Of a stretch of DNA of 64,000 bases, positions 34,728-63,444 are shown piece by piece. The stretch's first letter is position 1; each line of letters begins with the position of its first letter. The position numbers and the translations under genes were made by a program. The notes under the pieces are model-generated. The model was not told the origin of the DNA, did not search any database, and saw only the letters and a list, made by a program, of their open reading frames with translations. The stretch comes from Lama glama (Eukaryota), in assembly GCA_028534125.1 (NCBI GenBank), contig CM052851.1, forward strand, positions 6,510,001 through 6,574,000, read 5' to 3'.

Positions 34728-34828
34728 ATGAGTTTAAAACCTTTCACCTACCCGTTTCCAGAGACAAGGTTTCTTCATGCGGGATCCAATGTATATAAAT
34801 TCAAAATCAGATATGGCAACAACATCAG
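34728..34828 (+). CDS. MAJIN: MAJIN coding exon 1
   Basis: Exon starts at 34711 after ctttatttag; [33 protein letters not shown]; donor AG|gtaatt. Confidence 0.95.
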
Positions 34829-37800
34829 GTAATTTTAAAGTTAGGAGAGTAGCCTTTGCAAACACAGGTTAGTACATTCCTACAGGTCATTCCTTCTCTG
34901 CCTTCACCTAATCTGGGAGACTGACTGAAGCAGCACCTTGTAGGACTCTTTCCCAAGTATTTTATATTCTGTATATGTATTATTCGTGTAAGTTTTTAAA
35001 TTAGCGATGGCATACCTTTGGGGCAGTGGTTCTCAAATTTTTTTAATCTCAGGACCCCTGTGCACTCTTAGAATTGAGAATTCCAAAGAGTTTTTGATTA
35101 AGTGGGTTATACTTGTCAGTATTTATCAGATAGATAAAATAATAAACTTATTAATTTTAAAATAATGTATCATTAAATGTTAATGAATAACATTTTATTA
35201 AAAATAACTTTTTTTTAAGAATTAATGAGAAGATTGGTATTGTTTAACCCCCTGGGACTTACCCCAGGAATGCAAGGATAGTTCAACATATAAAAATCAA
35301 TTAATATAATACATTACATCAATAGAAAGAAGGGGGAAAAAAACACATGATCATCTCAATTGATGCAAAAAAGGCACTTGATCAAATCCAACACTCTTTT
35401 ATGATAAAAACACTCAATAAACTAGGAGTAGAAGGGAACTTCCCTCAACATAAAGGCCACATATAAAAAACCCACAGCTAACATCATACTCAGTTGTGAA
35501 AAACTTAAAGCTTTTTCATTAAGATCAGGAGCANNNNNNNNNNNNNNNNNNNNNNNNNNNNNNNNNNNNNNNNNNNNNNNNNNNNNNNNNNNNNNNNNNN
35601 NNNNNNNNNNNNNNNNNNNNNNNNNNNNNNNNNNNNNNNNNNNNNNNNNNNNNNNNNNNNNNNNNNNNNNNNNNNNNNNNNNNNNNNNNNNNNNNNNNNN
35701 NNNNNNNNNNNNNNNNNNNNNNNTTAGAGATGATCAGTGAATTCAGCAAAGTTTCAGGATACTAACTCAGTTTTAGTGTATACAACATTGATTTGTATAC
35801 AGTAGCAACAAACAATCTGAAAATTAGGAAAACAATTTCATTTGTAATAGCATCAAAAAGAAAAAATACTTAGCAATAAATTTAACCAGTGAGATGCAAG
35901 ATTTGCACACTGAAAACTACAAAGTACTGCTGAAAGAAATAAAAGGAGACCTAAGTAGACATCTTGTGTTCATAGATTGGAAGACTTAGTATTATTAAGA
36001 TGAAAACAGTACTCAAAGCAATCAGCAGATTCAAAGCAATCCATGTCAAAAATCCTAAATGGCTTTTTTTTTTGCAAAAATGTACAAACCAATCCTAAAA
36101 TTTATATGGAGTTTCAAGGAACCCCAAATTGCCAAAATAACCTTGAAAAAGAACAAAGTTGGAATACTCATACTTCCCAATTTAAAAACTTACAACAAAG
36201 CCTCAAGTAAGCAAAAAATATGGTACTGGCCATTTCCTCAAATAAAGCAAGACTTTTGATCTTGCCATTTGTGACAACATGGAGGGCATTATGCTAAGTG
36301 AAGCAGGACAGAAAAAAGACAAATACTGCATGATCTCACTTATAGGTGGAATCTAAAGAAAAAACTCCCAAAACAAAAAACTGAAATTATAGATACAAGG
36401 AACAGATTGGTGGTTGCCAGAGGTGGGGTGTAGGGGTGAGCAAAATGGGTGAAAAAGTGGTCAAAAGGTACAAGCTTCTAGTTATAAAATCAGTAAGTCC
36501 TGGGGGTGTAATGTACAGCATGGTGACTGTAGTTAATAATACCATATTGCATATTTGAAAGTTGCTAAGAGAATAGATCTTAAAACTTATTATCACAAAA
36601 AAAAATTTTTTGTAACTGCACAGTGACGGATGTTAAATAGAGTTATTGTGATCAATCATTTTGCAGTGTATTCAAATATTGAATTGTTATGTTATACACC
36701 TGAAATTAATGTTATATGTCAGTTATGCCTCAGTTAATAAAAAGGTTAAGACAAATGCACACACACACGCACAAATTATGGTACTGGTATAAGGACAGAC
36801 TATAGACCAATAGTATAGAATTGAGAGCCCAGAAGTAAATATCTATAGTCAATTGATTTCTGACTAGAATGCTAAGACCATTCAATGAGGAGAGAACAGT
36901 CTCTAACAAATGGTTTTGAGAAAACTGAATATCCACATTCAGAAGAATAAAGTTAGACCCTTACCTTACACAATATACAATAGTTAACCAAAAAGGAATC
37001 AAAGACCTAAATTTAAGAGAGTAAGTCATAAAAAAAACTTAGAAAAAACATAGGGGCAAATCTTGATTTTGGATTTATCAGTGGTGTCTTAAAATACCAA
37101 ACACACAGGCAACAAAAGATATTAGATAAATTGGACTTATTTAATTTTTTTGATTGGGCATTTAAGAACACTACCAACAGAATGAAAAGGCAAATCACAG
37201 ATGGGAGAAAATATTTGCAAATCATATATCTGATAAGAGCTTAATATCTAGAATATATAAAGAACTACAACTTACCAACAAAAAGATAAGCAATCCAATT
37301 AAAAATGGACAAAGGACTTAAACAGACATTTCTCTAAAGATATACAAATGGCCAGTAAGCACAAGTCTCATTAGTCACTAGGAAAATACGAATCAAAACC
37401 ACAATGATATGCCACTTTACACCTACTAGGATGGCTATAATTTAGAAAACAAAAAATACCANNNNNNNNNNNNNNNNNNNNNNNNNNNNNNNNNNNNNNN
37501 NNNNNNNNNNNNNNNNNNNNNNNNNNNNNNNNNNNNNNNNNNNNNNNNNNNNNNNNNNNNNNNNNNNNNNNNNNNNNNNNNNNNNNNNNNNNNNNNNNNN
37601 NNNNNNNNNNNNNNNNNNNNNNNNNNNATACAAATATTGTATGATTCCGCTTATATGAAGTATTAAAATAGGAAAAGTGATAGAGACAGGAAGTAAACTA
37701 GAGGTCACTAAGGGCTAGGTGGAGGGGAGAATGAGGAGTTATTGCTTAGTAAGTACAGTGTTTCTATTTGTGGAGATGAGCTTTGTAATTTTTTGGCGGG

Positions 37801-40800
37801 GGGGGGGAGAATAATTGGTGGAGATACTAGAGATTGAACCCAGGACCTTGTGCATGCTAGGCATGCACTCTACCACTGAGCTATACCGTTCCCCACAATA
37901 AGCTTTCGAAATAGGTAGTGGTGGTTGTACACCATGGTTGTGAATGTAATTAATACCACTGAATTGTATACTTAAAAATGGTTAAAATGGAAAATTTTAG
38001 GTTATATATATTTTTCCACAATTTAAAATGTATTAATTAACTTTAAAATAGTAATATATTTATTAGGTGTTAACACATTTTTATTAAAAATGATTATATT
38101 TTCCAGGGGAGGGTGTAGTTCAGTGGTAGAGTGCATGCCTAGCATGCACAGTGTCCTGGGTTCAATCCCTAGTACCTCCATTAAAAAGTAAATAAACCTA
38201 ATTACCTCTCTCCCCCAGAAAAACAAACAAACAAAAATAACTATATTTTCCAAAACAAAAAATTAATGAGAAGATTAGCATTGTTTTAAATTTCTGAAAA
38301 TCTCATTAATGTCTGCCTTAATAGAAAACTGCTAGATTATCATATTTGCTTCTACCTTTAATCTGTTATGAATTTTTTTCTTTTGGTTGAATTGTATGAA
38401 AAAAATCTGGCCTTACACAGATTTGTAGTTGGGAAAGTTAGGAATATATTAATAGCCTTCTCAGATCATTGTGGATATTATTCTTTGACCCTACATCAAA
38501 ACTTGACAAGTGGTAGTTTTGTTTTTTTAAACGTGGCAGGTTTTTAAAGGTTAGTTACAATGTGGAATCTGAAGTTTAATCACTGAACTTTCTGAACTCT
38601 GCTGCATTAAAATCCATTGGTCTACCTTGTTCTTTGAATGAATCTTTTACCTAGAGTTGTTCTGTAATGTGATGTTTCATTGGCCATTTGGTAAATATTG
38701 GTTCGCTGACTCATGCAGATCATTCAGATGTCAACACATTTCATCATACAATAACAAAAAATCATATTTGCTAATATCACTACCATTCTTATCAGAAAAA
38801 TATTTTTAAGTATTTGGAAGCTGTCAACCTCACAGTCATGGATAGAATTTTTCTAAAATTCAAAATTTTGCTTGAAATCCCAAAATTTATCCTTGACAAC
38901 AAATACTGTCAGTTGTTTTCCTTGCATTGATAAGCTGATTGTTCATTTTTGAGAAAATGTCTGTCACATTCCCAAGTCTGAATAACAACTATAGTTTGTT
39001 TGTCTTCTGATCATTCAAGTAAAATGTCATTCCATGAAAAAAGCAGGTAGTTCAATTTGCAACTTGAATAGTCGCACAAATGCTTTTCCTCAAGACAACC
39101 ATCATGTTTTGGTATGCAGCTGAAGTGCTCTGTGCATACATCCTGTTTTATTACATAATATATGTAAAAGACCTGTTTTCAAGGTTGAGATTTATAGGAT
39201 TTTTAATTTTTTTACTACTTCCTCTACAATATTAAATGAAACCATTTTTTTCCTGTGTAACAGAAAAGATAACTATAACTGCTAGTACAGTTTAGTGCAT
39301 CTGGCTAGATTTATGCTAAGGCATCAGCAATTTTGCTCACCACTGATTTTATACTACTGATTACAAATGTTAATATAGTGAAAAAGGCAAATAACATCTT
39401 AGTATTATTATGAAACTAATTTTGCATTTGGAGACTCCTTGAAAGTGTCTTGAGGACTCCTAGGGGTTCACAGACTACACTTGTACAACATTTCTAACAA
39501 ATAATTAACTTTCACAGTGGGAATTTCAGGTCTTGGCACACTCGTTAATGGAGAAGATATTTTCCAACAGCTTTGTATCCGTTCTCAGACCACACCACCT
39601 AGGTGATCTCTTCTTCCCTTGAGCACTGGGTCAGCACACACAATTGTTACTTAGTTATGTTCCCTTAGCTCAGGGGAAGTGTCATTTTTGCTCTACTAGA
39701 GTCTGTTGTCTACAGAGCTTTCCTTCTTGGCTTACTTATCTCTCATCTGTTTACTTCTAGAGGGGAAGATGTAGAAAATAAGGATGTCATCGTCCAGGAG
39801 CTGGAGGTAGGGAAAGAAGCAGACAACTTCTGGGAATATTATTCTTTAAGCTGAGGATGCATCCTTATTCAGATTTTAATTATTTCCTGCAAACTGAGTC
39901 ACAACCTCTACTTGATTACTTGGCTTCTCCCTGCCACATTTCCTCTGCAAAGAAACGTTACTGTTTTTCCAGGGAAATTAAAGCCTGTATTCTTTCTCAG
40001 TTCTCCTAGTTGAAGTGTCAGCACCTTTGAGGCTAAGAGTTATTTTGTTTCCACTAGAATTCCCAGCCACAGGCAGCTCTCTTTTGTGGCAGCTGGCACA
40101 GACAAAGCTTCCGGAAGACTGATGCCTTCCAGGGCTCTGGGAAACCTCACCATCCCAACCACTGCCTGGTACTTGACGTTCAGGAAACTCAACTGTAAAT
40201 ACACAGACAAGGCTGCTGTGTCTTCATTTTAATTGGAAACATTTGCAGTTGCTTTATTCCCACTTCATTTTCATTCCTTTTCTACCCAGCTCCTGTAACT
40301 TTAGGTTCTCTCACAGGAAGAAGACTGAGCAAGTGGACAAATTTGTAAATGGGTGAAAGCATTGGACACGAAATTAGAGTTCTGGGAGCCGACCCTGGAT
40401 TCCAGTACTCCTTAGCCACTAGTTAGCTATGTGAACCTGGGCAAATCACATAGCTCTCTGGGTCTTAATTGCCTCAGTTGTAACTAGTGGATTCTTTTCT
40501 AACTTCACAGCTGAGTGATCTATGACTGTTGTGATTTATGAAGGCATATGCTGCCACATTTCAAAGCATTTTAATATAATTAAATACACAAACACAAAAC
40601 TGTGAAACCAAAAATCTGAGTCAAAGTTGTAAAGGTACTTGTGGCTCTTCAGCTATGTGTTGAAAAATACATTAGGATCTTCCAGGACCTCAAAGGCATC
40701 ATTATAAATAACATTTATGTTCATATAGGACCATGACAATTTTCTGCTCATTTTAATTATGAGTAGAGTAAAATTTATTTCACTTTGCTTCACTTAATTT

Positions 40801-43800
40801 GGACAGAAAAGCTCAAAGCAACATAGTAAGAGAGAGCATAGACTTTAGAGGCAGTGAAACCTGGATTTGAACTCTGGTTCTGCCTTCACAGTGTGACTTC
40901 AGGAAAGTTACCTACCTTCTCTGAGTCTGTTTCCTTACCTGTCAATGAGATTGAAAAATAATCCAGTTTTCAAGATTGTGGTGAGGATTAGAAATAGATG
41001 TGTGCAATTCCTGCCATATAGTAGCTCAATTAATGATAGCTAGAGAGCACTTACATAAATTTATAACTATATTAAAAGGTTTCAAAGAGCTTTTTATGTT
41101 CTTTCTCTTACTCTCATTAGTTTTAGGCAAATATTATCATCCCCTTTCATTCATTTAGAAAGCATTTATTGATAGGCAATGTATCCCAAAGGTTAGGAGC
41201 ATATGCTCCAGAACCCCACTGCCTAGGTTCATACCTTAGCTACACCATTGCTACTTGTGTAACCTTCAATAAGTTATTTTACCCCTTTGTCTCAGTTTCC
41301 TCATTGGTAAAATGGGGATGATAGAACTGTCTATCTTACAAGGTTTTTATGAGTATTAAATTAATATGTATAAAAATAGTAATACTTGCCATAGTGATTA
41401 CTCAATAAATGCTAGCTATTAAAATTATAAGCTAGATACTATGCTAATAGAGATAACATAAAGATAAACATGGCATAGTTTCTGTTTTCTGTGAGCCCAA
41501 ATATGAGGAAAATGAGTCTTAGAGATGAAATGACAAAGCTGAGACTGAAATTCACATATTTTTCCCACAAAAATTCAGTAGTCTTTTTATGATACCAAAT
41601 TGTTTAATTATTGTATACTAACAAGCATAGGTTAATTAGAGATAAATTAATATTTTAAGCGAGTGGAAGAAAAGGTTTGACTTAAGTAAAAGCAAAATAA
41701 GTATATATCAGTAAATACCAGTGTTATTCATTAATTCAGCATATATTTACTGAGGACCTGTTATGCTCCACCTACTATGGTAGACACCATAGAAGGGATG
41801 CTAAGGTAAATCAAGTATATTCTACTTTAAGGAGATTTCTCAGTAAGGAAAATAAAAATATATACATGGAATTTAGTAAAGACCCAAGGCTAACTACTGT
41901 AATATTTGAGACCAATAGTTAATGCCACTTGGGAAATCAGGGAAAACTTTCTGGAGGAGATGGCTTTTGAATTGTACCATAAAAGGACAGGTAGAATTTC
42001 ATCATATGCTGATGAGTTCAAAGGGTATTTTAGGCAGAGGGAAGACACAACGCAAGAGCACAGACATGGAGAAATAGAAGGCATATTCAGGGAACGGCTC
42101 AGTTTTAAAAGAATATAGGATATAACAAGGGTAAATTGATAGATTGGCTGAGATTAGACAGTATTAAAATCATTTCTTTTTTTTTTCAGGATTCTATTCG
42201 TGTGGTCTTGGGAAACTTGGACAATCTGCAACCATTTGCTACAGAACACTTCATTGTATTTCCCTGTATCCTTTCTTTCCTGGGTGGAAATGAACTATGA
42301 CTCACATTGTAGATTCAAAAGGAAGCAACAAACCCATAGGCAGTTTGGAGGGTAGGTCAAGGAAAGGAGAGGGAGACTTTTCTCTAAAATAGCACTCAGG
42401 GATTTGTGCTGGCTTCTTTCGTCACTCCTTAACACATTACCCAGATAAAAGCAAATGGGAGAGTGTGTCCCACCTGAAATTCAAACATGGGGAAATTGTC
42501 TTGGTTCCCTACCCATTTGTTTTCACTCTGTATGTGGAGATGAAATGGTTTCATGAAAATCTGTCATCTAGTAAGTAGAATGACAGAAGTGTGGGTGGTG
42601 GGGAAGAAAAAAGGGAAGGTTGAACATCCATGGATCAGCAGTGCAAATTTAATATGGCAAAACAGGCAGTCAGACTGGGCCTCAACACTGCACAGTGCAG
42701 AAGTCAGGAGCATGTGCTTCAACCCAGACTGTGTGGTTCAAATCTTGGTGGCTTTGCCACTTAATAGCTGTATGACCTTAGATAAATTACTCAATCTTTC
42801 TATGCCTCCTTTGTTAAATGGTGAATAGTAATAATAGTACTTATCTTATTGAGTTGTTAAAAATATTAAATGTATAAATACTGGAAGATGGAAAGTGCAA
42901 AGTCTGACCTAGAGTGATCACTCAGTGAAAGATACTATATAAATTATTCCTTCCACTTTAGAATATTTAATGGCTCACCTTAGTGGTGTCTTAGAGATAT
43001 CTCCCAATTTTTAATCTCTGAGGGTCATTACCATTTTTAGAAATAGAGGGATGAGGAAACACATGCCAATTTGATTTGAAAAAAGGTATAAAAGCCTTAC
43101 CTCAGAATATCTCCCCAATTCATTTGTCACTGAAACCAGATATTCCATTTTTTCCTTTTGTAATAGGGATCATCCACTTTATGTGACATATAATAAGAGT
43201 ATAGTGTGAATCAAAATATTTTTAGATAACAATAGTTTTTAAATAAGGGAGGAAGAAAGTTTGAAGACAGTATTTCTAGGAAAAGTGGTCTCAGGTGGAT
43301 GAGAGAAGGGCACACACCAAAGTTTTGTCTAGGACCAGTTCTGAGAAATCTATGGTGTCCAGAAATCCAGGTGAAACAGTCTTGATCCATTATGACACTG
43401 AAATTTCCTGTTGTAGGAAAACCAATAAACAACAGTCCTCTTGGGTTGGTAAGTTTCCCTTTTTTGTATGAAATGAAAATTGCCTTTATTGCCTCTTGTT
43501 GTCTAAAAAGTCCTGCTCTTGTCTCTTCTTTTTTGCCTCTTGGTTGCTGCCCAAGTCCAATCAGAATTGTATACGTGAGACATTCTTTTTCCCCTGGCTA
43601 GATTTCTGAGACTATGTCTCTAACAGAATATCTATCCTTACTTGCAAAGCTGGTGTTAAAAGTTGCCTTTGGCAGTTTAAAGATGGGGAGTTCTCTTCAC
43701 TGTGCCTTCATTTGAGCAACCCTGGAAAAGGAGGAGTCACAGGAGTCTGGTTCCTCTCTGAAGGTCCTAGCAGAGAAGAAAGCAGCAGGAGCCATGATGA

Positions 43801-46800
43801 GGAAACGAAAACGCATAGAAGTGCCCGGCTCCCCCAGCAGGCCACGGCTGGACAGGTCAGTGGTCTCAGGAGAGGGGCTAACCCCTGCATCCTAGTTAGG
43901 CTTTGCCAGCTACTGCTGCTGGTTGATCTTGTATTTGGGTGAGTCACTCTCTCTCTCAGGGCTTCATTCACACCTGCCTAGTGCATATTCTAGTAGATGG
44001 ACTAAGGAAAGGAAGCAAGTTGATATTTGCGATGTAATTTTTTGTTTTTTATTGAAGTCTAGTTGATTTACAATGTTGTATTAGCTTCTGGTGTACAGCA
44101 TAGTGATTCAGTTATACATATATATATATACTCTTTTTCATTAATAGGTTATTACAAGCTATTGAATATAGTTCCCTGTGCTATACAGTTGGACCTTGTT
44201 ATCTATTTTATATCTAACAGTTTGTATCTGCTATTCCCAAACTCCTAATTTATCCCCCTCCCTTCCCCTTAGGTAACTATAAGTTTGTTTTCTGTGTCTG
44301 TGAGTCTATTTATGTTTTGTAAATAAGTTCATTTGTGTCATTTTTTTAGATTCCACATGTAAGTGGTATCATGATATTTCTCTTTCTATGTCTGACTTAC
44401 TTCACTTAGTATAGTAATCTCTAGGTCCATCCATGTTGCTGCAAATGGCATTATTTCGTTCTTTTTTGACTGAGTAGTATTCTACTATATATTATATATT
44501 TTTATTAAAAATATATTTAATATATGTAAAATATATAATGGAATACTACTCAGTCATAAAGAAGTATATGTGTACATATATATATATATATACACACACC
44601 ACAACTTCTTTATCCAATCATCTGTCAATAGACATTTAGGTTTCTTCCATGTCTTGGTAACTACTGCTGCACTGAACATTGGGGTACATGTATCTTTTCA
44701 ACTTAGAGTTTTCTCTGNNNNNNNNNNNNNNNNNNNNNNNNNNNNNNNNNNNNNNNNNNNNNNNNNNNNNNNNNNNNNNNNNNNNNNNNNNNNNNNNNNN
44801 NNNNNNNNNNNNNNNNNNNNNNNNNNNNNNNNNNNNNNNNNNNNNNNNNNNNNNNNNNNNNNNNNNNNNNNNNNNNCATTTGTGGACTTTTTAATGATGN
44901 NNNNNNNNNNNNNNNNNNNNNNNNNNNNNNNNNNNNNNNNNNNNNNNNNNNNNNNNNNNNNNNNNNNNNNNNNNNNNNNNNNNNNNNNNNNNNNNNNNNN
45001 NNNNNNNNNNNNNNNNNNNNNNNNNNNNNNNNNNNNNNNNNNNNNNNNNNNGATTGGCTTGTTTATTTTTTTGTATTGAGTTGTATGAGCTGTTCATATA
45101 TTCTGGAAGTTAAGCCCTTGTCAGTCACATCACTAGCAAATATATTCTCCCAGTCCCAGGTTGTCTTTTCACTTGTTTGTGGTTTCCTTTGCTGTGCAAA
45201 AGCTTATAAGTTTGATTAAGTCCCATTTGTTCATTTTTGCTTTTACTTCTTTTGCCTTGGTAGACTGCACAGAACATTGCTAAGATTTATGTCAAAGAAT
45301 GTTTTGCCTATGTTCTCTTATAGAGGATTTATGGCATCCTGTCTTATGTTTAAGTATTTAAGCCATTTTGAGCTTATTTTTGTAAATGGTGTGAGGGAGT
45401 GTTCTAACTTCATTGATTTACATGCAGCTGTTCAGCTTTCCCAATAACACTTGCCAAAGAAACTGTCTTTTCTCTATTGTATATTCAAAATGTCTCCTTT
45501 GTCAAAGATTAATTGACTGTAGGTGTATGGGTTTATTTCTGGGCTCTGTATTTTGTTCCATTGATTCATATGTCTGCTTTTGTGCCAATAGCATGCTGTT
45601 TTGATTACTGTAGCTTTGTAGTATTGTCTGAAGTCTGGGAGGGTTATGCCTCCAGCTTCGTATTTTTTCCTTCAGTATGCAATGTAATTTGAACACAGTC
45701 CCTTCCTCAGCAAAGTAGAATTCTTCTGTTCATCAAGATGAAGGCTGGGGGGAAATGCAACCAGATCTAAACACTTGACTACAAGTCAGTGAGTGCTTAC
45801 TATGGTTGCACTATCAAGAAACACAGTCACGAGGCACAAGATACGAAGTCCCAGGATATTATACAAGAACATAGAGAAACCTTCAAAAGAGTGAGAACAA
45901 ATAAAATATAATCCTATTTTACCCAGTGAGCAATAAGCTTTTGGTAATCTACCTTAAAATGTAGTCCAGGCCAGGACAGGTTGCGGCAAAAACAGAATGG
46001 TGGAAAGTTGTTCTGCAGGTGGTGAAACTTGAGAATGAGTCCAGTGAATTCAGTCTGCACCTAGGACCAAGAAGTGCTGGTGATAGGAATCCTGACTTGT
46101 AGCAAAGCAGGAATAGCCAAGAGGCTTGAAGCCTCCATTTTGGTTCCAATGTCTACAAGAGGGAATGCATCAGTTATTGGAGGGGAGTACTGAGCACAGC
46201 CCTTCACATATTGAAGTTACTACTGGGGAGGCTGCTAATTTTCTTCTTTTGATTTTCTGTCAGGGACAGAATGAGTCTGTAAAACAACTCAGTCATTTAT
46301 ATTAGCACCTAGATAGGGATACTGGGATAATCCAACGTGTGGTTTGTGCTCCAGCCCAAAGTACTTTCAGCTCAGGTTTAGAAACAGCAGCTGTTTTTTT
46401 CCTGGTACTATGTGGGCCCCAAGATACACAGGAGCAGTGAGGATAGACCTCAAAGGAGCTGACCTCTACACCCTCAAAATGCACTTGTCAGTGGAGAGTT
46501 AGGCAGTTCCCTTCCCAGCCAGGTGAAATGTGAGGGTATTTGGAGGTGTGAAGCTTTGCTCAGTTCCATTTGACTAAATTTGCCATGGCAACAAGGCCTC
46601 ACATCTTCCCTTTCTCTGTGTTTTGATGCACAACCAAGTATTTCAAAATCTAATACCTGCTGTCAATCACATTTTCCTTTTCTCAGCCCCTACATCCCAA
46701 ATTGTGATTCTGCTGTGAATTAAAGCAGCACCCAGGGAGAATTTGGCTATACAATTTAGTCTGCAGGCCAGGAGTGGCATAAAAATAGCCAACCTGCTGA

Positions 46801-49800
46801 AATATTCATTTGGGCCACATTTACTTGAATGTGGTGATGTTGTTGCTGCCAGTAACATTTCCTGGGCTTTTTTCTCCCACCTCAGGGCCAAGATGGGGAC
46901 TTCCAGCCAACGGCTCAGCAAAAAGAAGCCCCCTATGGAAACCAGGAGGGTAAGCACCAAAATGGAGACTTCAAAACTCTTGGCTATTCCTGCTCTGTTA
47001 CAAGTCAGGATTCCTGTTACCAGCACATCTTGGTCCTAATTACAGACCGAATTCACTGGACTCATTCTCAGGTTTCACCATCTGCAGCACAACTTTCCAC
47101 CATTCCACCCTTGCCACAATCTGTCCTAAAAGTAGCTGCATAATACACACATCGATGAATCCTTTTGTTAGCTTAAAAACTGCTTTCTTATACTCCGCAG
47201 TTGAAGTAAGAAAATAGGTCTCTTGCATTGAGGTGGGATCCAGTTTAGAATTTTTTTAGAAACCTTTTTTCTTTCATCTGCACTGGAGTCTGAGTCTCGG
47301 AACATATAGGTTTTACAAACAAGCTACATATATATCAACACAGGACACTGGTAAGAGAAGACATTTAGAGCAGTGATGGGCTGGCCCCAGTAGTATTTGA
47401 TTCATTTTATGAGGTCTGTTCTCCATTTAGATATTCATACATCTACTTCTCCTCCATTTGGGGACTTCTTTTCTATAATAGTCTCTAAAATAGCGCCCTT
47501 TTTCTTCAAATAGCTGTTGAATGTGCCTTTTCTTTTTTCTATCCCATCTCACCAAAGAGGGTCTAACCTTAAGTATCCAAACACTCACAGATCACCTCCC
47601 CCATCTTCCCAAGATCCATGACATGATCAGTTATGGAGCAAACATTTACATATTCATTCAGCAAACATTTGTTGAGTGTCTGCTATATGTCAAATACTAA
47701 GGCTACCTTAAAAATGCCAAAAGTGTAAAGCTGAACAGACAATTACTGATAGATGTGCTGTGTTGTAAGAATAAAAGAAGCACAGGGTACAAAGGGACCA
47801 CAAATGAGAACCTCACTCAGACCAAGTGGATGTGAGATTGAGTTCCCAGAGTAGCTCAAAGAACTAAAGCTAAGAGGAAAGAATACAATAGTTTTGGTGA
47901 CTGGAAGCCGATACACCTGGTGTATAGAGTACAGTGCTGAGAAATGTTACTGGAGAGGTCAGCACGGCCTGGATCATAAAAGGCCTTAAAGCCACCTTCA
48001 AGATCACAGGAATTCCCTACAACGTTTTAAAAAGTAGAAAAGTGAAGTGATTTTCATTTCTAAACAATTCTGTCTCTGGCTTGCAAGGCATTGTGTTAAG
48101 TGCTGAGATGCACCCAAACATATAAAACCTAGTTTTTTCCCAGGAGCTTATCATTTAGTTGGGGAAAGAATGAACCCTTAAGGACTCATACCTCTCCCTC
48201 TGTGGGCAGGGGCAGGGTATTGAGCCCTGTTGTGCCCATGGCTGACTGGCCCACGGAGTAATTTTAGACATATGGTTCCCTTCTTCTATACTTGTCATCC
48301 TTTAGAGAGGGAAGAAGGAAAAATGAGAAAGTACAAGAAAGTACATGAAGCTCTGGAGAACAAAGACACTTTATACAACCAAGATAATTACTATTAAAGG
48401 AACATTTCCCTCACTCTCTACCCTTTGTACCTTCCTATTCTTAGTTTGACACATCATCTCCCTCAAGAACAGTACCCACAGTTTCTTACTCAACATAATT
48501 ACCTTTTCATCCTGATACTGGATTTAGGAAAAAAACTCTGAGAAAAAAAAAAAGAACATGTTTATTGATTTTGACTCAAAGCCCAGAGACAGCCTCCATT
48601 GTAGACCCTGTTCCCAGAGAGCGGACTTCTCCTAAATTAAAGTGATCACAGTGATTCTTAGTGTAAGTCACTTGAGCTGGAAGAATTGATTTGCTCCTAT
48701 GGTCCAATGCTTAATATCTTCTCTCCCCTTTGGGAGAAGGTAGTGTGTAAGAACACAGTCAGTGTGGATTGTGCACATCTGAATGCATTGGGAGCCTGTG
48801 CAGAGAAGGCTTAGAAGATTACAACACATATCTGAATAAGGTCTCTGTTTCACAAGAGGTGTTTTGAAGAGAATGGGAAGGAAGGTCAGACTTACTACCT
48901 TTGTTATGTCAGCTCCTAGACCTAGAGATCCAGACTTTAAAAGGATAAAAAATAGGAGAGAGCAGGTGAGTGATCCAGAAGTGAACGGACTGTGTTTTGT
49001 TTTTGTTTTTGTTTTTGTTTTTGTTTTTGTTTTTGTTTTTGTTTTGTCTCCTCTGCTTGAACTGCACTTCTAAGCAGATCTGGCCCTGAACATACAGGGC
49101 ACAACCTTGCATCAGGTTTTCAGGGTATTATGTCTTATTGGATGTCCTAGATGGTATCTTCAGTCTTATTTCAGGCTATAATGGTTTTCCTCTCTTATAT
49201 CATTTGCCTGAGGAGACCTCTGTTAAGATTTCAGGAGAGCACAAAGCACAAAGGCTAAACTATCTTATGAGGGAAATCTCCCCTGTTCAGAGGTAGGCTA
49301 TTCCTCTGCCCTAGGGCCTTTGCCCTTCTGGTCACCACTGCCAAGCTTAGTAGATGCTTTCATTAGGGCCAGTGCAGCAGGATTTAGACCTCAAACCACA
49401 GTTTCACTACATCTGTAAGAATCATTCCCTCAAGCTAGAAATCAGAGCTGGGCCCTCTAAGTTCCATCTCTACCCTATCTAGAAGAAGTAAGAGATGATC
49501 TCCTCCCCAGAGTTTCCTTTATATTTTATAGGAATATGACTTAGGTGGCTGCCTTTGGGGTCTGGAATTTGAGAGGTTTATGGAAAAGCTTATCAGAAAT
49601 ATCAGCCTGTGCTCTGTCCTGGGAGCTTATTGTGCCTCTGCCCTCCCAGAGCCACCTGACAGTCCGCGGCCCCTTGCTATATATCTTTCCCCAGTAAAAT
49701 GGCTCAAGGAATTCGCCAGCATTGCTGGGTAGTCAGGCCCTCGGGTTCTGCCTGGGTGAGGGGAGTGAACAGTTGGCAAAGATTCTCAAAGAAAATGTAT

Positions 49801-52238
49801 AAACCATGTTTCTGACTATCTGGTGTCTACTAGAATATTATAGGCTTGGAACCAGGTTGTAGGATGCCCCCTTCAAAGTACAAAGGAAGTTCTATAGAGC
49901 AGTAGCACAGGGAATATAATAAGGTTGCATTGTAGCGTGTCGGCTGGATAGTCATGTTTCTGCTGCCCTGGCTGTAGCCTTGCTGATCATATGTACTTGT
50001 TAATGGCAGCATGCCCTTGTGCATCATGTCCTTGTCTGGAATGCCCTATTCTCTCTGACCCCTTGATGCCATCCACCACGGCCCCATCTAAATAATACTT
50101 CTCCTGTGAAGTCTTCCGTGACTAACTACTACCCACTCTACTCATGTTCCCCTCAGCAGCCACCACAAACTGCATGGACTGATGGGGCGGTCTTATCACA
50201 CTGTCTTATAATGCCTAGTTTATATGTCAGTTTTACCACAGACAGTATACTATTCTCCAAAGTAAAGCAAAGGTCCTCTTGGTTTCTGAAACCTCAATAT
50301 TCTGTCCTTGGCAATAGTTGGCACTAAGAAACGTGGAATGGTAAGTTAAACCCAGCTTGGTTTGTTCTCAGCTCTTAAATATTATGATTTTAGAGGGACA
50401 GTGTTTGGGAAGCTGCTATGGGAAAAGGACACTCCTAAGAAGGAAAACCACCTGCCTGGGTAGTCAGAAGCCAGGCCCCAGCACTGATGTGAAATCACCT
50501 TACCAGCAAATAGTGTTCAGACCACCAAGCTATAAAGGAGTAAAGTTTAAGACTTCTTGGTCTTTTTATCAGAACAGGGAAAGAAAAACCCAGCAAGAAT
50601 GGCAGGAGACCCCAGCGTTTGATATCACTGATGTCCAACACCAGGGTAGGTTCTGGGAAATTCGTATTTATTCTTCTCTAATTATCATGCTGTCCTCTTT
50701 AGTTCTCTGATGAGCAGAGCAGCACAGAGCTCTGAGTCTGGGCACACTCGGTGGATGATGTGCCTTGCTCCCTGGAGGTGCTTGTTGGTCATCCTCCAGT
50801 CCAGGGGCCGGCTCTTGAGTGTTAGAAGTCCCCACAGCTCCCAAAGGAGTGAAGGAGGCAATGCATGTCCTTCTTGTGTTTCTGATAGTGAAACTGATCT
50901 CCCACAGTTCCCAACATTTCCACATGGGGTGATAAGTTTTACAGAGTTGGGAGGGATGTGTTTTACTTTCTGTCTTGGAGAACAACCTCTGGGATGCTGT
51001 TCTCCTCTACCCTTTGGGGCATTAATGTTAATATTGAAGGTGCAGATAGATGCTTGGCAAGGGCTGGAAATGTATGACGAAGTGTTGCCCTTTCAACTTG
51101 CTGATCTTTCACTCAGCATAAGGATTCAGTATGTACTGCAGTTATCATAAACGAAGGCATGTAAGCAAGTAAATTCTTTAACAAATTTTCATTCCATAGA
51201 AGACACACCAGCTGTGGTGGGTAACTGGGATTTGAGCAGTGTAAAAATCTCGGGGGCTTAACCTAAAAAATACTCCAAGGTCAGAATAGCATCTTACTGA
51301 GCTGAGATGAAATTGGGAAGATCAGAATAAACAATTCACCTGGCTTCAAACAGTCCTGGTGTGAGGCTGTCCTTGGCTCACATTCAGTGTCCTGCCTTCG
51401 GCTCACATGAAGGTAGCCCATGGACTAACACCTTTTCCCTGCCTGAGTGTTTTCCTTGCAGATTCTAAGTGGGAGGATAGCCCAGCAGGGAAGATTATCC
51501 CACCATTGAAGCAAAACAATCCACCTCCACCTGAAGGACCCACAGAGCTGGGAACCAGTGGCTTCTTTGGGTTTCTAAGGTAGGACAGACTGCTCTCCTG
51601 CCATCAAACTGAGATCCAGGGCAGTGTAGCTCCAAAATCTTCATTGACTCTCTCAAGAAAATTAGAATAGAAAAAGGAGATTACCTGCATAATCTCTATT
51701 TTGTCCAGGATGGATGAAAGAAATGAGATTGAGCCTAAGGGCCCTAACCATGAATTTAACAAAGACTGTGTCTTGTCCATTTTTATACAGCCTACCCTAC
51801 CCAATGTGCCCAGCATTGGGCCTGATTCCATAAGGCTGCTTGGACAGAGACTATCCTTATTGTGCTTTGGCTATTCAGATGATTTGGTTACCAGAATTTT
51901 TCCATTCTTCCCTCTAAATCTAGCCTCTGTCTTCCGAGTCCTTTTTGCTGAGTACAGTTAGCAAATCCCTTTATCTGTCTAGAGCTCAGTCATCCCTTTG
52001 CGGTTCTCCTTCTTCTTTTCTACCTCCTGAGTATAATCTAACTTGGGTGCCTTTTCAAATGCTGTTTCAGTCTTGAATTTCCATTCAGTGGTCCCTCAGA
52101 GCAGAATGCCCTAGCTAATGGAGCCCTATGGGACCTGGGAGAAGGGAAGTGGACCTCAAGAGTCTCAACCTGCTCTGCTCTCCTTCCTGCAGCTCTCTCT
52201 TCCCATTTCGGTATTTCTTCAGAAAGAGCAGCCAGTGA
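34728..52238 (+). CDS. MAJIN: Membrane-anchored junction protein (TERB1-TERB2-MAJIN meiotic telomere complex); join(34728..34828,39761..39806,42190..42265,42445..42570,43417..43448,43764..43855,46886..46949,50573..50645,51462..51579,52193..52238), 257 aa
   Basis: Spliced 774-nt [33 protein letters not shown]...[30 protein letters not shown]...[21 protein letters not shown] matches recalled human and mouse MAJIN (C11orf85). Exon phases are all consistent, the C-terminus is a hydrophobic anchor, and synteny (BATF2-MAJIN-GPHA2-PPP2R5B) fits. Confidence 0.95.
35248..38025 (+). mobile_element. L1 ORF2 and 3'UTR, with a nested younger L1 3' piece at about 36230-36776
   Basis: RT-region phrases (ccaggaatgcaagga, catgatcatctcaattgatgca); ORF track [14 protein letters not shown]; TSD TATGGTACTGG at 36219-36229 and 36777-36787. 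Confidence 0.8.
37790..37894 (-). mobile_element. tRNA-derived SINE (Vic-1-like) inside an L1
   Basis: Same consensus on the minus strand. Confidence 0.75.
38106..38235 (+). mobile_element. tRNA-derived SINE (Vic-1-like) with TSD
   Basis: Same consensus; TSD approximately AAAAATRAYTATATTTTCCA on both sides. Confidence 0.85.
39761..39806 (+). CDS. MAJIN: MAJIN coding exon 2
   Basis: ttacttctag|; (R)[15 protein letters not shown]; GAG|gtaggg. Confidence 0.92.
42190..42265 (+). CDS. MAJIN: MAJIN coding exon 3
   Basis: Poly-T then cag|; [25 protein letters not shown]; U12-type donor |gtatccttt. Confidence 0.93.
42266..42444 (+). other. MAJIN: U12-type (minor spliceosome) GT-AG intron of MAJIN
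   Basis: 5' splice site GTATCCTTT; branch site TCCTTAAC at 42426-42433, close to the CAG acceptor; no polypyrimidine tract. Confidence 0.9.
42445..42570 (+). CDS. MAJIN: MAJIN coding exon 4
   Basis: (Y)[41 protein letters not shown]; donor A|gtaagt. Confidence 0.93.
43417..43448 (+). CDS. MAJIN: MAJIN coding exon 5
   Basis: ttgtag|; (R)[10 protein letters not shown]; TTG|gtaagt. Confidence 0.88.
43764..43855 (+). CDS. MAJIN: MAJIN coding exon 6
   Basis: ctctctgaag|; [30 protein letters not shown] (basic patch); AG|gtcagt. Confidence 0.88.
44038..45675 (-). mobile_element. L1 ORF2 end and 3'UTR, antisense in a MAJIN intron
   Basis: Poly-T start, then L1 reverse phrases (ggtccatccatgttgctgcaaatgg, ttttgattactgtagctttgtagta). 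Confidence 0.8.
45974..47126. repeat. Long inverted repeat (arms 45974-46144 and 46956-47126) flanking MAJIN exon 7
   Basis: Hand alignment of the left arm to the reverse complement of the right arm: 171 bp, no gaps, 22 mismatches. Confidence 0.95.
46886..46949 (+). CDS. MAJIN: MAJIN coding exon 7 (64 nt)
   Basis: cccacctcag|; (R)[21 protein letters not shown]; AGG|gtaagc. Confidence 0.88.
48993..49045. repeat. (GTTTTT)n hexamer microsatellite
   Basis: About 8 tandem units visible. Confidence 0.9.
50573..50645 (+). CDS. MAJIN: MAJIN coding exon 8
   Basis: tttttatcag|; [24 protein letters not shown]; G|gtaggt. Confidence 0.88.
51462..51579 (+). CDS. MAJIN: MAJIN coding exon 9
   Basis: ttccttgcag|; (D)[38 protein letters not shown]; AG|gtagga. 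Confidence 0.88.
52193..52238 (+). CDS. MAJIN: MAJIN last coding exon
   Basis: ccttcctgcag|; (S)[17 protein letters not shown]. Confidence 0.9.
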
Positions 52239-54820: not shown

Positions 54821-55229
54821 GTGAGCTCACTGAGGCAGGAGGAGACCTGGGAGGGCCTGGGGCTGCAGATAAGGGATCTGCAGGCCAAGACAGGGCAGAT
54901 GGAGGGAGGCAGAGGTTTATGCTCCAGATGGTAGGGGAAATTCCAGGGGAGAATCACTGCAGTGGGCTGACACACAAGTCACATTGAGACAGCTGCTCAC
55001 ACTCAACACTCATCCGGAAAGACACTCAATCACAGGTGCACACACACACACACACTCACCAAAAGGCAGATACAAGGAAAAGACAGATATATGGAAAAGA
55101 CAGCCCCTCAGGCATGCATCACCCCAATGAGAAAGACCAGCCTAGCCCTGGAGGCATGCAGTAGTTAAAGAACTCCCCCTCCGACCTGCATATCCATCTA
55201 GAGACAGCTATCTACCCACTGTGTTTCAG

Positions 55230-55332
55230 ATGCCCATGGCGTCCCCCCAAACCCTGCTCCTCTGCCTGCTGGTCCTGGCAGTCATTGAAGGCCAGGGTCG
55301 GCAGGCGGCCATCCCAGGCTGCCACTTGCACC
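55230..55332 (+). CDS. GPHA2: GPHA2 coding exon 1
   Basis: gtgtttcag|ATG; donor C|gtaagt. Confidence 0.95.
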
Positions 55333-55857
55333 GTAAGTAACCTGGGAGCAGAGAACTGGGTGGGAGCAAAGAGCTGATGGACTGGGCTGAGGGGCAGAAA
55401 GCACCCTTGAGGGAGCAGTGAGGCTCAGGCAATCATCTACTGTCGCCTGTTTTCCTAGCCTTCAATGTGACGGTGCGAAGTGACCGCAAAGGCACCTGCC
55501 AGGGCTCCCATGTGGCACAAGCCTGTGTGGGCCACTGCGAGTCCAGCGCCTTCCCTTCCCGGTACTCTGTGCTGGTGGCCAGTGGTTATCGACATAACAT
55601 CACCTCCGTCTCTCAGTGCTGCACCATCAGCACCCTGAGGAAGGTGAGGGGGCCCAGTCTGGTGGTGGCTCATCGTGGGTAGGGGAGACAGAGGAGATGG
55701 GGTTCTAAGATGGCCCAAGGAAGGGGGCTGGAACAGACACCCACCTCTTCCACAGGTGAAGGTGCACCTGCATTGTGGGGGGGACCGGAGGGAAGAGCTG
55801 GAGATCTTCACAGCCAGGGCCTGCCAGTGTGACATGTGTCGCCTCTCACGCTACTAG
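55230..55857 (+). CDS. GPHA2: Glycoprotein hormone alpha 2 (thyrostimulin alpha); join(55230..55332,55459..55643,55756..55857), 129 aa
   Basis: Signal peptide MPMASPQTLLLCLLVLAVIEG, then cystine knot GCHLHPFNVTVRSDRKGTCQGSHVAQACVGHCESSAFPS...SQCCTIS...ACQCDMCRLSRY*; N-glycosylation sequons NVT and NIT; GT-AG introns. Confidence 0.97.
55459..55643 (+). CDS. GPHA2: GPHA2 coding exon 2
   Basis: tttcctag|; (P)FNVTVRSD...TLRK; AAG|gtgagg. Confidence 0.95.
55756..55857 (+). CDS. GPHA2: GPHA2 coding exon 3
   Basis: cttccacag|; VKVHLHCGG...CRLSRY-TAG. Confidence 0.95.
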   Translation: MKVHLHCGGDRREELEIFTARACQCDMCRLSRY

Positions 55858-56072
55858 CCCATCCTTCTCCCCGACCCTCCCCTTCGTCAGAGGGTTTGAG
55901 GTTGGAGTAGATCCTGTATATCCTGAACCTCATTAAGGACAACAGCTCCAACCCTCTTAAGATTCTGATTGTCACCTCCCGAGAGGCGGGAGTTTTCTGC
56001 TTCCTCCCTGCCTCTGCCTGGCTTCCTCACCAGTCCTTCATCATTTCACTTTCCTCTTTGTCCCTACCCCTA

Positions 56073-56888: not shown

Positions 56889-59800
56889 CTGTGGAGAGAG
56901 GGCGAGGCAGTTCTGCTACCTGGGGCCCGACCTACAGTCCAGCCTCCCTCGCCGCCACCCAACTCTGCAAAGGGAACCTTTCACTTAGGGGAGAAAGCAG
57001 TAAGGAGAGACTGGTCCCAGCCTGTGGTCATGGGGCAGATAGATTAGCCTAGCCCTGAGAGGCCCCAGCTGAAGGGTGGGAGGAGGCGCCATACCTCAGA
57101 AGAAGTACTTAGGAGGATAATTGGAGGATACAGGTGAGAGCTGGGCACAGATGGCCCAGCACTTGGCAGGAACGTAGGCAGAGACTTTAAACGCCTGATC
57201 AGATGGGATGTGGGTTGCCCTCTTAAGTTCCCTCCAACCATTAGGAACTGGTTCCTGTTTGCTTTTCTCCCCTCTCCCTCTGTGCCCAGCCCCCCAACAC
57301 TCACTGCTGCTTTTCCAGCTTGTAGGAGGCTGTGAGCTCATCAAACAGCTTCCCATTCATCTCCATGAAGGTCTTGAGCACATTGTAGATCAGCGATACA
57401 ATGGTTCTTGGCAGGGTCAAGGGAAGGAGTGAGGAGATGAGAGCAACTTCGGTTGGGTCCCACCTCCCTCTCCAGCATTCTGCCTCTCCTTGTGTCCCAA
57501 ACAGAGAATGCAGCCCTGAATTCCACAGCACTGCCCTCTTCCTGCTCCTTTCGTCACTCCTCCACCATCTTTGGATGCCTTCCCTGATCCTCTCTAGCTG
57601 GGGGTAACCCTAGTTCTGGACTGGTTGGCCCTGCCGCAGCTTTTGTGGGTTAGGTCAAGGCCTGGGNNNNNNNNNNNNNNNNNNNNNNNNNNNNNNNNNN
57701 NNNNNNNNNNNNNNNNNNNNNNNNNNNNNNNNNNNNNNNNNNNNNNNNNNNNNNNNNNNNNNNNNNNNNNNNNNNNNNNNNNNNNNNNNNNNNNNNNNNN
57801 NNNNNNNNNNNNNNNNNNNNNNGAGCACCTGACAGTGGCTTCCCTCCATGTGCAAGGCCTGGTATCCATCCCCAACTCAAAACCCAGGGAGCCCTGCCCT
57901 CCACACACCCCATCTTCAGGGCTCATCTAACCCACCAGAGGAAGCAACGTGGTAAGGTGAAAAGAGCACTGGATTTGGAGTTCAACGCTCAGGAGTGAAT
58001 CCCAGCCCCACTACACACTGGCCACATGACCTTGGGCAAGGCATTTAACCCGTCAGTTTTCAAATCTGTAAAGTGGGGCTAATAATAGCTACCTCCATAG
58101 GGCTGTTGTAAGAATCAAATGAGGTATTTAGTAAACCGAAGTGCCAGAATCACTGTGAGGAGAAATTGTTAACCACCAGGTTATGGCTCTTAAGAATGAG
58201 AGAAAATCTGCACACACACATGCAGGAGAACATCAGTTACAGCCAGTCTGGATGGTGTGGGGAAGCCTTGCTGGGCTCTGAAGTGGGGCTAATGAAACCT
58301 AAGGTCACTAAGAAAGGGGAAAAATGATGACAACCATCCATCCCATTCATGGCCGTTTCCTAAATGTCCATTTCAGTTTACCAAATGTGTTCTTGCTACC
58401 ATCTCTTCAGTTCTCATCTGTGAAGAGATCACTACAGATGAAGAAGCCCATTCTACAGATGAGGAAGCTTAATCAGACTTGAGTTGCTAAGTGATTTGCT
58501 CAAGGCTCCTCAGCCAGTGGGAGGCAGATCTGAGGCTAGACCCTAGGTCTCCTGACCCTAAGTCCAGCATCTCTCCATTATCAGACCCAGGAAGGTCAGA
58601 GGAAAATCTAAGGACAGAGGGAGCTATGTTAAGTCAGTGTGCCAACCCTACCAGTCCATACCCTGACTCTCCCTGACCTGTCCCTGCCCCATACCTGGAA
58701 ATGGGGGCTGGACACACAGCGAGCCACCTGCTTGAAGAGGGGCTCCTGGATCTTCACAAACTGGGAGGGCTCAATGACATCCAGAATCTCTTCCATCTCC
58801 CCCAGAAACATCACCTGGGGTAGGGTGTAAGGACACAGAGGGCAGCAGTTCCCATCTCCCCTGACGCACACGTGACTGCCCTCTGGAATCTGAGCCCTCC
58901 CAACCTCACTCTGATGGACATCAAAGCCCTTCATACCTCCTTCTGGGTGCAGGTTTTTGGCCAGTATTTGAGCAGCCCCCGGATCACCTGTGGGAGTTGA
59001 GGCAGAAACAAGTCAGACCTGCAGGGGTGGGGGCCTGCCTGTCCCCTCAGAGGTACTCACATGCTCTGTTAAGGTGGCGTCCTTCTCCAGGAACTGCACC
59101 ACACAGTATGCCAGCTGCAGGGGTTGGGGAAGAGGTAGGCAGAGAGAATAGGATGGGTCAGCAGGGGACCAGGACAGGACACCAGACATTTGCTCATTTA
59201 CTGTGTCTATTCTCTCATTCACCTAGGGTGTACCAGGCACCGTGTATGGTGTGTGAGGACACAGTGATCTCACAGGGGAAACGTTCAGCAAACTAGTCCT
59301 TAAAAATTTTACAGAAGTTTCCATAATCGAAATCCGTGTCATGATCTATGGGAATATAGAAAGAGGGGAGCCTAATCCTGCCCAGGGCCGGTCAAGAAGG
59401 AGGGGCTGGGAAGTCTTCAGAGAGCTGATGTCTAAGATTGGCCTTAAAGGGCCTCTCTAAGGTAGATGGAACAGAATTAGTAAAGAAAAAGGCGAGAGAG
59501 GATCCCATGAGTTCATGCGTTAGTGTGGCTGGAGTCAGAGTGTCAGGCTGACCCTGCAGCCCAGATGACTTCCCTGACTCTGTCAGGAGCTCTCTGCTGC
59601 AGCAGGGGCAGGCCTAGGCCTTACCTGGGCATGAAAGACAGACAGGGATTTGACAGAGTGCAGGGGAATCAGGACCCGAACCAGGAACTGCTTGTGCTCA
59701 GTCTTCAGGGGCAGTGCAAAGCCATTGATGATGCTGAGGAGGAGACAGAAGAGATGAGGAGGGTTCAGATGACTGGGCCTCAGTCCCTCCTCCCAGAATC

Positions 59801-62800: not shown

Positions 62801-63444
62801 AGTGGGGAGAAGAGCGAAGACCAAGGATCTCTAGGGTGCCCTCCGCCTCAGCCAGTTAGGTCCCAGAGGTGGGGGGGATTACACAGTGATTGTAGGGAGC
62901 CATGTTAAGCACCTGCTCCAGGACCCTGGCAGCAGCTGAGCTGCTAGTGGCCTCCTGGAACCCAGGCTGTAGGCCCCACCCTTGGCCCTGGTCTGCCCCC
63001 CAGGGTGGCGCCACCTCCAGATGCCCCACCTCCAAGGATGACAGGCCAGTCAGGCCATGCGTCAGCAGAGAGGGCTAGAGGGCTGGGGGGTGGGGGTCAG
63101 CTCAGATAGTGGAGTCCCTGGCCTGGAAGGGGCCATCCAAACTCCCTCTGATCACAGCTACCAGCTGCTTCTCACTACCCCACCCCCAAGCCTCACTTGC
63201 CCACTCCAGGACTCAGGTACCCTCCCAGTCAGCAGCTGGGCTCACCTTTGAGCAGGGGCAGTGGAGTGAGTTCTTGCTGGTTGCTCTGATAGCGGAACTG
63301 AGAGGAGCTATGGGACCGCCGGGGCCGGGCCCTGCGGAGGGAACGGCGGGAGAAACCGTCCACCTTGTCTGGTGGAGGCACAGGGGACAGCCCCGGTGAA
63401 GAGGGGCTGGTGGGGGTGCTTGCAGGGGGCAGCTTCGTCTCCAT
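56741..63444 (-). CDS. PPP2R5B: PP2A regulatory subunit B'beta (B56 beta); visible exons 63246-63444, 62276-62472, 61567-61668, [one in N-run 61294-61433], 61059-61189, 59834-59893, 59625-59733, 59061-59114, 58937-58987, 58695-58814, [one in N-run 57667-57822], 57305-57406, 56741-56888
   Basis: [35 protein letters not shown]...[27 protein letters not shown]...[14 protein letters not shown] is almost identical to recalled human PPP2R5B; phases are consistent across the visible exons. Confidence 0.97.
57305..57406 (-). CDS. PPP2R5B: PPP2R5B coding exon 12
   Basis: [33 protein letters not shown](Q). Confidence 0.94.
58695..58814 (-). CDS. PPP2R5B: PPP2R5B coding exon 10
   Basis: [40 protein letters not shown]. 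Confidence 0.94.
58937..58987 (-). CDS. PPP2R5B: PPP2R5B coding exon 9
   Basis: [17 protein letters not shown]. Confidence 0.94.
59061..59114 (-). CDS. PPP2R5B: PPP2R5B coding exon 8
   Basis: [18 protein letters not shown]. Confidence 0.94.
59625..59733 (-). CDS. PPP2R5B: PPP2R5B coding exon 7
   Basis: [36 protein letters not shown]. Confidence 0.94.
59834..59893 (-). CDS. PPP2R5B: PPP2R5B coding exon 6
   Basis: [19 protein letters not shown](S). Confidence 0.94.
61059..61189 (-). CDS. PPP2R5B: PPP2R5B coding exon 5
   Basis: [43 protein letters not shown](R). Confidence 0.95.
61567..61668 (-). CDS. PPP2R5B: PPP2R5B coding exon 3
   Basis: [34 protein letters not shown]. Confidence 0.95.
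62276..62472 (-). CDS. PPP2R5B: PPP2R5B coding exon 2
   Basis: (D)[17 protein letters not shown]...VYPDIIRM; AG/GT boundaries. Confidence 0.95.
63246..63444 (-). CDS. PPP2R5B: PPP2R5B first coding exon (exon extends upstream to acceptor at about 63712)
   Basis: gccATGG; METK...LPLLK; G|gtgagc. Confidence 0.95.

Follow-up and report, generated by a model that had tools for sequence, protein, structure and literature searches.

We analysed a stretch of 64,000 nt of Lama glama DNA (assembly GCA_028534125.1, contig CM052851.1, positions 6,510,001 to 6,574,000 of the forward strand; hereafter the window), which carries the gene MAJIN. In meiotic prophase, telomeres are tethered to the inner nuclear membrane by MAJIN, and mice and people become infertile when it is lost (PMC6297230, PMC11563684). 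Within this gene, a gapless inverted pair of 172 nt per arm (45973-46144 and 46956-47127) encloses coding exon 7 and no other MAJIN exon. We tentatively suggest that the pair arose by an old local inverted duplication, that its arms would pair in the transcript and divert some transcripts to skipping of exon 7, and that this effect is tolerated rather than selected. If this is true, an RNA structure deciding on the inclusion of the membrane anchor would amount to a dosage control on meiotic telomere tethering, and the recurrence of anchorless MAJIN isoforms in mammalian annotations would be explained. Even if the pair is neutral, nature has here produced a counterpart to the engineered reverse-complement allele of Tbxt, in which one arm lies unusually close to the donor of the MAJIN exon.

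Geometry and copy number of the inverted pair

The left arm (45973-46144) is located in intron 6, and the right arm (46956-47127) covers positions +7 to +178 of intron 7. The loop between them comprises 811 nt (46145-46955, plus strand) and holds the acceptor, coding exon 7 and the first six intron bases of the donor. The original prediction had described ungapped arms at 45974-46144 and 46956-47126 with 22 mismatches, mostly transitions, and had placed the 64-nt exon 7 with its acceptor in the 811-nt loop and the start of the right arm at +7. Our alignment and coordinates agree with this description. In the 171-nt register, 22 of the 171 positions are mismatched, 18 of these mismatches are transitions and there are no gaps, while outward extension of the match adds one base, giving 172 nt. 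Gapped local alignment of the flanks did not lengthen the inverted match. Among the 55 inverted pairs in the window, this pair is the longest (within-window BLAST E = 5e-55).

In the original prediction the arms had also not been recognised as any SINE, LINE or LTR, and our searches point the same way. When we searched the llama's own genome with the arm DNA, with a 58-aa arm peptide and with the left arm plus its flanks, the two arms were the sole matches, which does not by itself prove rarity. We also examined a background sample of 100 other 10-kb loci (1.0 Mb in total, 400 kb of it adjoining the window and the rest over four contigs, so that the sample is non-random), and no arm homologue was found in it, a result that still leaves room for very old repeats. 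An inverted Alu or short interspersed element (SINE) pair was rejected because, with two genome matches and none in the 100 loci, the arms are not copies of a dispersed repeat at the sensitivity of these searches. A pseudogene fragment was rejected as well, since the 58-aa frame, which is open in both arms, matches the arms alone. The single match in an Rfam scan had an E value of 0.64 and 16.9 bits against a cut-off of 55, indicating no known structured RNA.

Predicted pairing of the arms

When the arms are paired on the sense strand in the 171-nt register, they form 149 Watson-Crick pairs and 6 G-U pairs, and the remaining positions are 12 A-C mismatches and 4 others. The computed duplex energy is -277.8 kcal/mol, and pairing begins at 46956, the six donor bases being mostly unpaired. 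The folding proposed in the original prediction was supported by structure prediction, in which the long helix is present in the minimum-energy fold as well as in the centroid fold. For the nascent RNA we thus predict a duplex of the two arms, positioned next to the bases read by U1. The differences between the arms are not biased to pairing, with 6 G-U against 12 A-C among the 18 transitions (p = 0.24). Since selection for pairing would favour G-U and A-C is commoner here, the arms carry no signature of selection for pairing.

MAJIN and the consequence of skipping coding exon 7

The PF15077 profile scores above cut-off across the exons of the locus, identifying it as MAJIN, and the protein of 257 aa reconstructed from 10 coding exons agrees with P0184, a named protein of alpaca. 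On the plus strand, coding exons 1-5 (34728-34828, 39761-39806, 42190-42265, 42445-42570 and 43417-43448; span 34728-43448) are followed by coding exon 6 (43764-43855), which ends in GACAG and would provide the donor of a skip junction, and by coding exon 7 (46886-46949), which has 64 nt, shifts the frame if skipped and encodes a peptide present in orthologues. Coding exon 8 (50573-50645), coding exon 9 (51462-51579) and the coding part of the last exon (52193-52238), with the end of the membrane-anchor segment, complete the gene. The name exon 7 used in the original prediction holds for the seventh coding exon; in human numbering this would be exon 9, because camelid coding exons 1-4 sum to 349 nt and the c.349+1 donor is assigned to human exon 6 (PMC11563684).

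In the published layout, MAJIN consists of a core (residues 1-112), a flexible linker and a C-terminal membrane helix, and the human isoform X1 (254 aa) was chosen for study since it includes all domains; the accessible part of that structure and layout account describes no splicing control of the anchor. The C-terminal segment is reported to be a transmembrane helix (PMC6297230).

The borders of exon 7 read ctcag/GGCC at the acceptor and GAGG/gtaagc at the donor, and both splice sites are of ordinary strength, with a donor-U1 energy of -8.9 kcal/mol and 15 pyrimidines among the 17 bases preceding the acceptor. Since these sites are not weak, skipping of exon 7 would need another cause. Our reconstruction gave the same skipped product as the original prediction had derived, a protein of 197 aa that ends at a TGA in exon 9 (51507-51509), 70 nt upstream of the last junction, and that lacks the C-terminal anchor. 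With the loss of this segment, the best 19-residue hydropathy drops from 0.87 to 0.41. By the 50-nt rule, the camelid skipped message would be a candidate for decay.

Two other combinations of skipped exons would keep the frame: joint skipping of coding exons 6 and 7 (43764-46949) would give 205 aa with the anchor kept, and skipping of coding exons 7-9 would give 172 aa. The intron at 42266-42444, with the donor GTATCCTT and the branch motif TCCTTAAC, is of the U12 (minor) type by motifs that we take to be diagnostic. Majin has been handled as a minor-intron gene (PMC12956336), and its minor-intron and SRSF1-dependent splicing is mentioned without exon 7 or a repeat in the accessible parts of the reports (PMC12956336, PMC11550311).

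Origin and age of the arms

In the Myotis davidii gene model P0009, the reading frame continues past the exon-7 donor, so that the first part of the bat intron is translated. Of 34 residues of this read-through peptide, 26-27 agree with the right arm and 20 with the left arm, and the minimal nucleotide distance from the bat peptide over 32 codons is 7 for the right arm and 12 for the left arm. Where the arms differ informatively, the bat agrees with the right arm seven times and with the left arm twice. Because the bat read-through peptide matches the right arm, this arm represents the ancestral beginning of intron 7, and in the simplest reading of the sequences the left arm is probably an inverted copy of it.

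The arm-to-arm distance is 0.144, about 10 times the difference of about 1.5% between the window and the RNA runs described below, indicating that the copy long predates the split of those two camelid lineages. On general branch lengths, a neutral left arm would place the copying event between the artiodactyl root and the camelid stem, and a constrained left arm would place it earlier. Outside camelids, no left-arm sequence was obtained by a 21-nt pattern search of metagenome contigs or by a protein search with the 66-aa open frame of the left arm. Nine metagenome-contig loci with the 21-nt pattern were rejected as chance matches, since arm similarity stops at most 3 bases past the pattern, and the protein search, which gave no candidate, is a weak one since a spurious gene call in the frame is required.

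Just upstream of the left arm, the region of intron 6 at about 45700-45890 is homologous to an alternative last exon in the cat and cheetah models (P0208 and P0011), and the camelid frame is closed in this region.

RNA evidence for alternative entry into exon 8

RNA contigs of four runs from three studies were compared over the region 50470-50770. A 74-nt contig bounded by exon 8 (50572-50645) was present in three of the four runs, and the remaining run, X20, gave nothing. The exon-8 contig also stops at the 3' edge of the exon with no intron contig beyond, which is consistent with a further branch. Run X15 gave contigs at 50470-50599 (depth 12.3), 50570-50601 (32 nt, depth 55) and 50572-50645 (depth 133.7). 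No joints or loose ends were listed for the RNA contigs of this region, which is no proof of their absence.

When we simulated 31-mer graphs, the X15 pattern required that exon 8 be entered by splicing along a second route as well, one that ends in A/C/G-CAG. Among 14 simulated isoform mixes, only the combination of exon 7 inclusion, the exon 6-to-8 skip and unspliced transcript fitted X15, with the second route at about 35% (28-41%). Other routes of entry into exon 8, from exons 1, 2, 3, 4 or 5 or from circles of exon 8 or exons 8-9, did not produce the X15 pattern and were rejected. Intron 7 contains a cryptic exon of 53 nt (48913-48965, plus strand) with an in-frame stop and a strong donor; its last bases are likewise GCAG, and it reproduces the X15 pattern equally. 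Because of this equal fit, the RNA shows alternative entry into exon 8, and the skip itself is not proved. We consider that the exon 6-to-8 skip is probably the main source of the second-route signal.

The donor of the cryptic exon has the consensus form and is the best U1 match in the MAJIN gene (-13.0), and the models of horse, horseshoe bat and mole place an exon in the region homologous to 48913-48965. We also note it as a candidate poison exon. A (GTTTTT)n expansion (48994-49046) lies within the region that the horse and mole models use as an exon, and it probably disrupts a longer form of the cryptic exon in camelids.

The three exon-8 contigs each carry one other letter, which fits an Ile/Thr difference between the alpaca and Camelus proteins. 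The RNA runs are probably from Old World camels.

MAJIN isoforms annotated in other mammals

Annotations of six toothed whales (P0006 and P0057-P0061), two cattle (P0181 and P0188) and a galago (P0180) contain the exon-6-to-8 form. As gene models, these are candidate isoforms. They account for 9 of the 186 classified mammal-like MAJIN proteins of a set of 237, which is biased towards inclusion because it consists mostly of the best 120 of 384 matches to an inclusion-form query. The original prediction had suggested that exon 7 is skipped in vivo; the annotations in whales, cattle and galago and the fit to run X15 speak for this, and the equal fit of the cryptic exon makes run X15 ambiguous. 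It had based this on a human isoform said to have the frameshifted tail. The human form was not retrieved, and in primates the tail frame is seen in the galago model P0180 and is reached by another route in the marmoset model P0008. A search with the whale skip tail gave three proteins from 12 candidates, none of them camelid or human. All six camelid proteins examined from the seven-member alpaca cluster of P0072, together with its representative, include exon 7.

The skip frame ends after 197 aa in camelids, after 190 aa in cattle and at the end of exon 9 in whales and galago. By the camelid layout, only 1 nt separates the whale and galago stop from the last junction, so that decay would be escaped. 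Since the stops differ among species, the anchorless product is not conserved in length or in predicted fate.

Frequency of comparable pairs

With a minimum length of 80 nt and a limit of 3 kb, 13 inverted pairs were found in the background sample, of which 12 have homologues in other loci and one is unique to its locus. The locus-unique pair (G000:C36:6741051-6741213 and 6742988-6743150) has gapless arms of 163 nt with 89% identity and two genome matches, and on the plus strand its differences give 5 G-U against 9 A-C. Single-copy inverted pairs of such size thus occur at about 1 per Mb in this small sample (95% range 0.03-5.6), indicating that they are uncommon but recurrent.

The arms of the locus-unique pair (L108:7051-7213 and 8988-9150) are 1774 nt apart, and the pair is located about 185 kb from the MAJIN pair, presumably near the RASGRP2/NRXN2 boundary by gene order. 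Its left arm contains an exon-like acceptor and donor 45 nt apart, and no exon was identified in its loop. In the window itself, close inverted pairs of a tRNA-like SINE are found at 16563-16685 and 17050-17176 and at 37819-37893 and 38106-38180. These are ordinary repeats with many window copies, which we take to be the camelid SINE.

Weighing of the explanations

The sequence of events that we tentatively favour would be as follows. The start of intron 7 would have been duplicated and inserted in inverted orientation into intron 6, giving the left arm. Once the right arm is transcribed, pairing of the arms would compete with the splicing of intron 6. Splicing of this intron before the duplex forms would take the left arm away and exon 7 would be retained, whereas a duplex that forms earlier would lead to the joining of exon 6 to exon 8. 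In camelids, the skipped message would then be degraded or would give the anchorless 197-aa protein, and the dose of anchored MAJIN would be lowered. The lack of a G-U bias (6 against 12), the similar single-copy pair in 1.0 Mb and a skip-frame stop that varies among camelids, cattle and whales point toward an effect that is tolerated.

Here, we need to consider a number of observations that weigh against a tolerated, duplex-driven skip. Besides the equal fit of the cryptic exon, the diagnostic 32-nt contig was found in one of the four runs only, run X20 was empty and the contig depths are rough; moreover, a difference of about 1.5% from the window shows that the RNA of these runs is that of a relative. 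The bat asymmetry of 7 to 2 in favour of the right arm is not significant (p = 0.18). Models without exon 3, 4, 5, 8 or 9 also exist, so that skipping of exon 7 is one of several variable events in MAJIN. Since other exons are skipped too, and since annotated skipping of exon 7 extends to whales, cattle and galago, species with an unverified left arm, such skipping may not need the duplex. Two further observations bear on the tolerated part. Zero indels among 22 substitutions is mildly unusual, with a chance of about 0.06-0.16 under a general indel ratio. When we compared the right arm with the bat read-through of intron 8, the right arm was better kept (26/34 against 44/82 aa, p = 0.02), and when we compared it with two intron-start controls it was not clearly so (26/34 against 28/42, p = 0.45); these controls were chosen by eye among the proteins at hand.

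The pair could be neutral rearrangement debris with no effect on splicing, an explanation that we consider somewhat unlikely. Intron 6 would then leave before the arms can pair, and the variants would reflect loose splicing of the linker exons or the cryptic exon of intron 7, which accounts for the RNA geometry equally well. The variability of many MAJIN exons in the annotations, the missing G-U bias, the inclusion of exon 7 in all six camelid proteins examined and the comparable pair at G000:C36:6741051-6743150, with no exon identified in its loop, are all in line with such debris. The exon 7 splice sites, however, are not weak, and a 172-bp, 87% duplex that starts at +7 and spans less than 1.2 kb has the geometry that promoted skipping in reporter and knock-in tests (PMC13019944, PMC10901737).

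We regard it as unlikely that the pair is an old switch selected across many placental mammals, which would set the ratio of anchored MAJIN to a degraded form or to a soluble anchorless form that keeps the TERB2-binding core and the basic patches. Such selection would explain why the right arm is conserved in bat above the intron-8 control, why no indels separate the arms and why the arm boundary falls exactly past the six core donor bases; the annotation of the exon-6-to-8 form in six whale, two cattle and one galago models and the whale and galago stop, which would escape decay by the camelid layout, would also fit. It would not lead us to expect that A-C outnumber G-U, that the skip frame is truncated at different places in camelids and cattle, or that the left arm bears most of the change at informative sites, as an unconstrained copy would. 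In addition, left-arm DNA outside camelids was not found in the pattern and protein searches, and a search in supplements of a catalogue of conserved pairing, the full tables of which may lie elsewhere, did not find MAJIN. A broader proposal, which is quite unlikely in our view, would be that a pre-camelid, non-transposon duplex, starting directly past the donor core and retained also by whales, cattle and perhaps primates, regulates the anchoring of meiotic telomeres like a rheostat. About one third of the transcripts would then be anchorless with the TERB2-binding core, giving a soluble competitor in whales and galago and a degraded message in camelids and cattle.

It is very unlikely that the duplex serves mainly as an ADAR substrate or drives back-splicing of exon 7 into a circle. 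The duplex is long and contains 12 A-C mismatches, the sites that ADAR favours, and reverse-complementary intron matches reportedly promote both back-splicing and skipping, as the title of one study has it. Editing would, however, be a by-product of any such duplex, and a single-exon circle of 64 nt is below the usual circle size. We find it hardly credible that the 1.15-kb unit is an exon-capturing DNA transposon or another mobile element bounded by long terminal inverted repeats. Its ends are sharp and gapless as in such an element, but the flanks contain no target-site duplication, no other copy was found in the genome, and other mammals have orthologues of both the enclosed exon and the right arm; this explanation is largely refuted.

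Neighbouring features in the window

Downstream of MAJIN and on the same strand, GPHA2-like exons are found at about 55200-55860 (plus strand), and PPP2R5B-like exons at 56900-63500 (minus strand) converge on the MAJIN and GPHA2-like side from the opposite strand. These two names follow the labels of dog proteins. In dog, bear, goat and sheep models, MAJIN is fused to GPHA2. A tandem array with an 18-nt unit in about five copies is located at 7524-7613.

Comparison with known systems

The original prediction had presented the pair as a candidate for an undescribed system. This claim did not stand, since it has already been published that inverted sequences in introns, also those that are not Alu, cause loop-out skipping (PMC10901737, PMC13019944). 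Our literature searches found no description of the MAJIN inverted repeat, which unseen supplements may list. MAJIN/C11orf85 was absent from the searched supplements of PMC13019944, PMC8052449 and PMC11632617, whose full catalogues may lie elsewhere, and in PMC9713473 MAJIN appears merely as a screened gene.

Surveys of skipping by inverted repeats (PMC13019944; bioRxiv 10.1101/2025.03.07.642063) are, in their accessible parts, primate and Alu-centred, unlike the MAJIN pair. Unique complementary elements make up 4.69% of human inverted intronic alignments (PMC13019944), and the MAJIN pair belongs in this minority class of generally unique complementary elements. Alus are depleted within about 100 bp of exons (bioRxiv 10.1101/2025.03.07.642063), whereas the right arm of MAJIN is 6 nt from its exon. 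Pairs of conserved complementary regions (PCCRs; PMC8052449) likewise involve long-range intronic pairing around an exon. However, with a median of 13 nt and -17.2 kcal/mol, PCCRs are short, and conservation of both arms is part of their definition, while the MAJIN pair has 172 nt per arm and its conservation was seen for the right arm in one bat. The MAJIN pair is thus neither an Alu/SINE pair nor a demonstrated conserved complementary pair in the sense of PMC8052449.

The closest likeness is to TBXT, where the introns on either side of a single coding exon likewise carry complementary arms, an AluSx1-AluY pair (PMC10901737). The span is about 1.2 kb for the MAJIN pair, and the TBXT arms are 1,448 bp apart. 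The two cases differ in that the TBXT arms are Alu elements and the MAJIN arms are single-copy, that the TBXT arm is more than 500 bp from the exon and the right arm of MAJIN begins at +7, and that the MAJIN skip shifts the frame. Causation in TBXT was shown by deletion and knock-in, while the loop-out in MAJIN is a candidate by sequence. In mouse Tbxt, an engineered 297-bp reverse-complement copy of intron sequence (insRCS) led to exon skipping (PMC10901737), and the MAJIN pair appears to be a natural counterpart of this non-Alu inverted intron copy. Based on these comparisons, we suggest that the MAJIN pair may work like the TBXT type of loop-out skipping, as a natural, non-Alu case.

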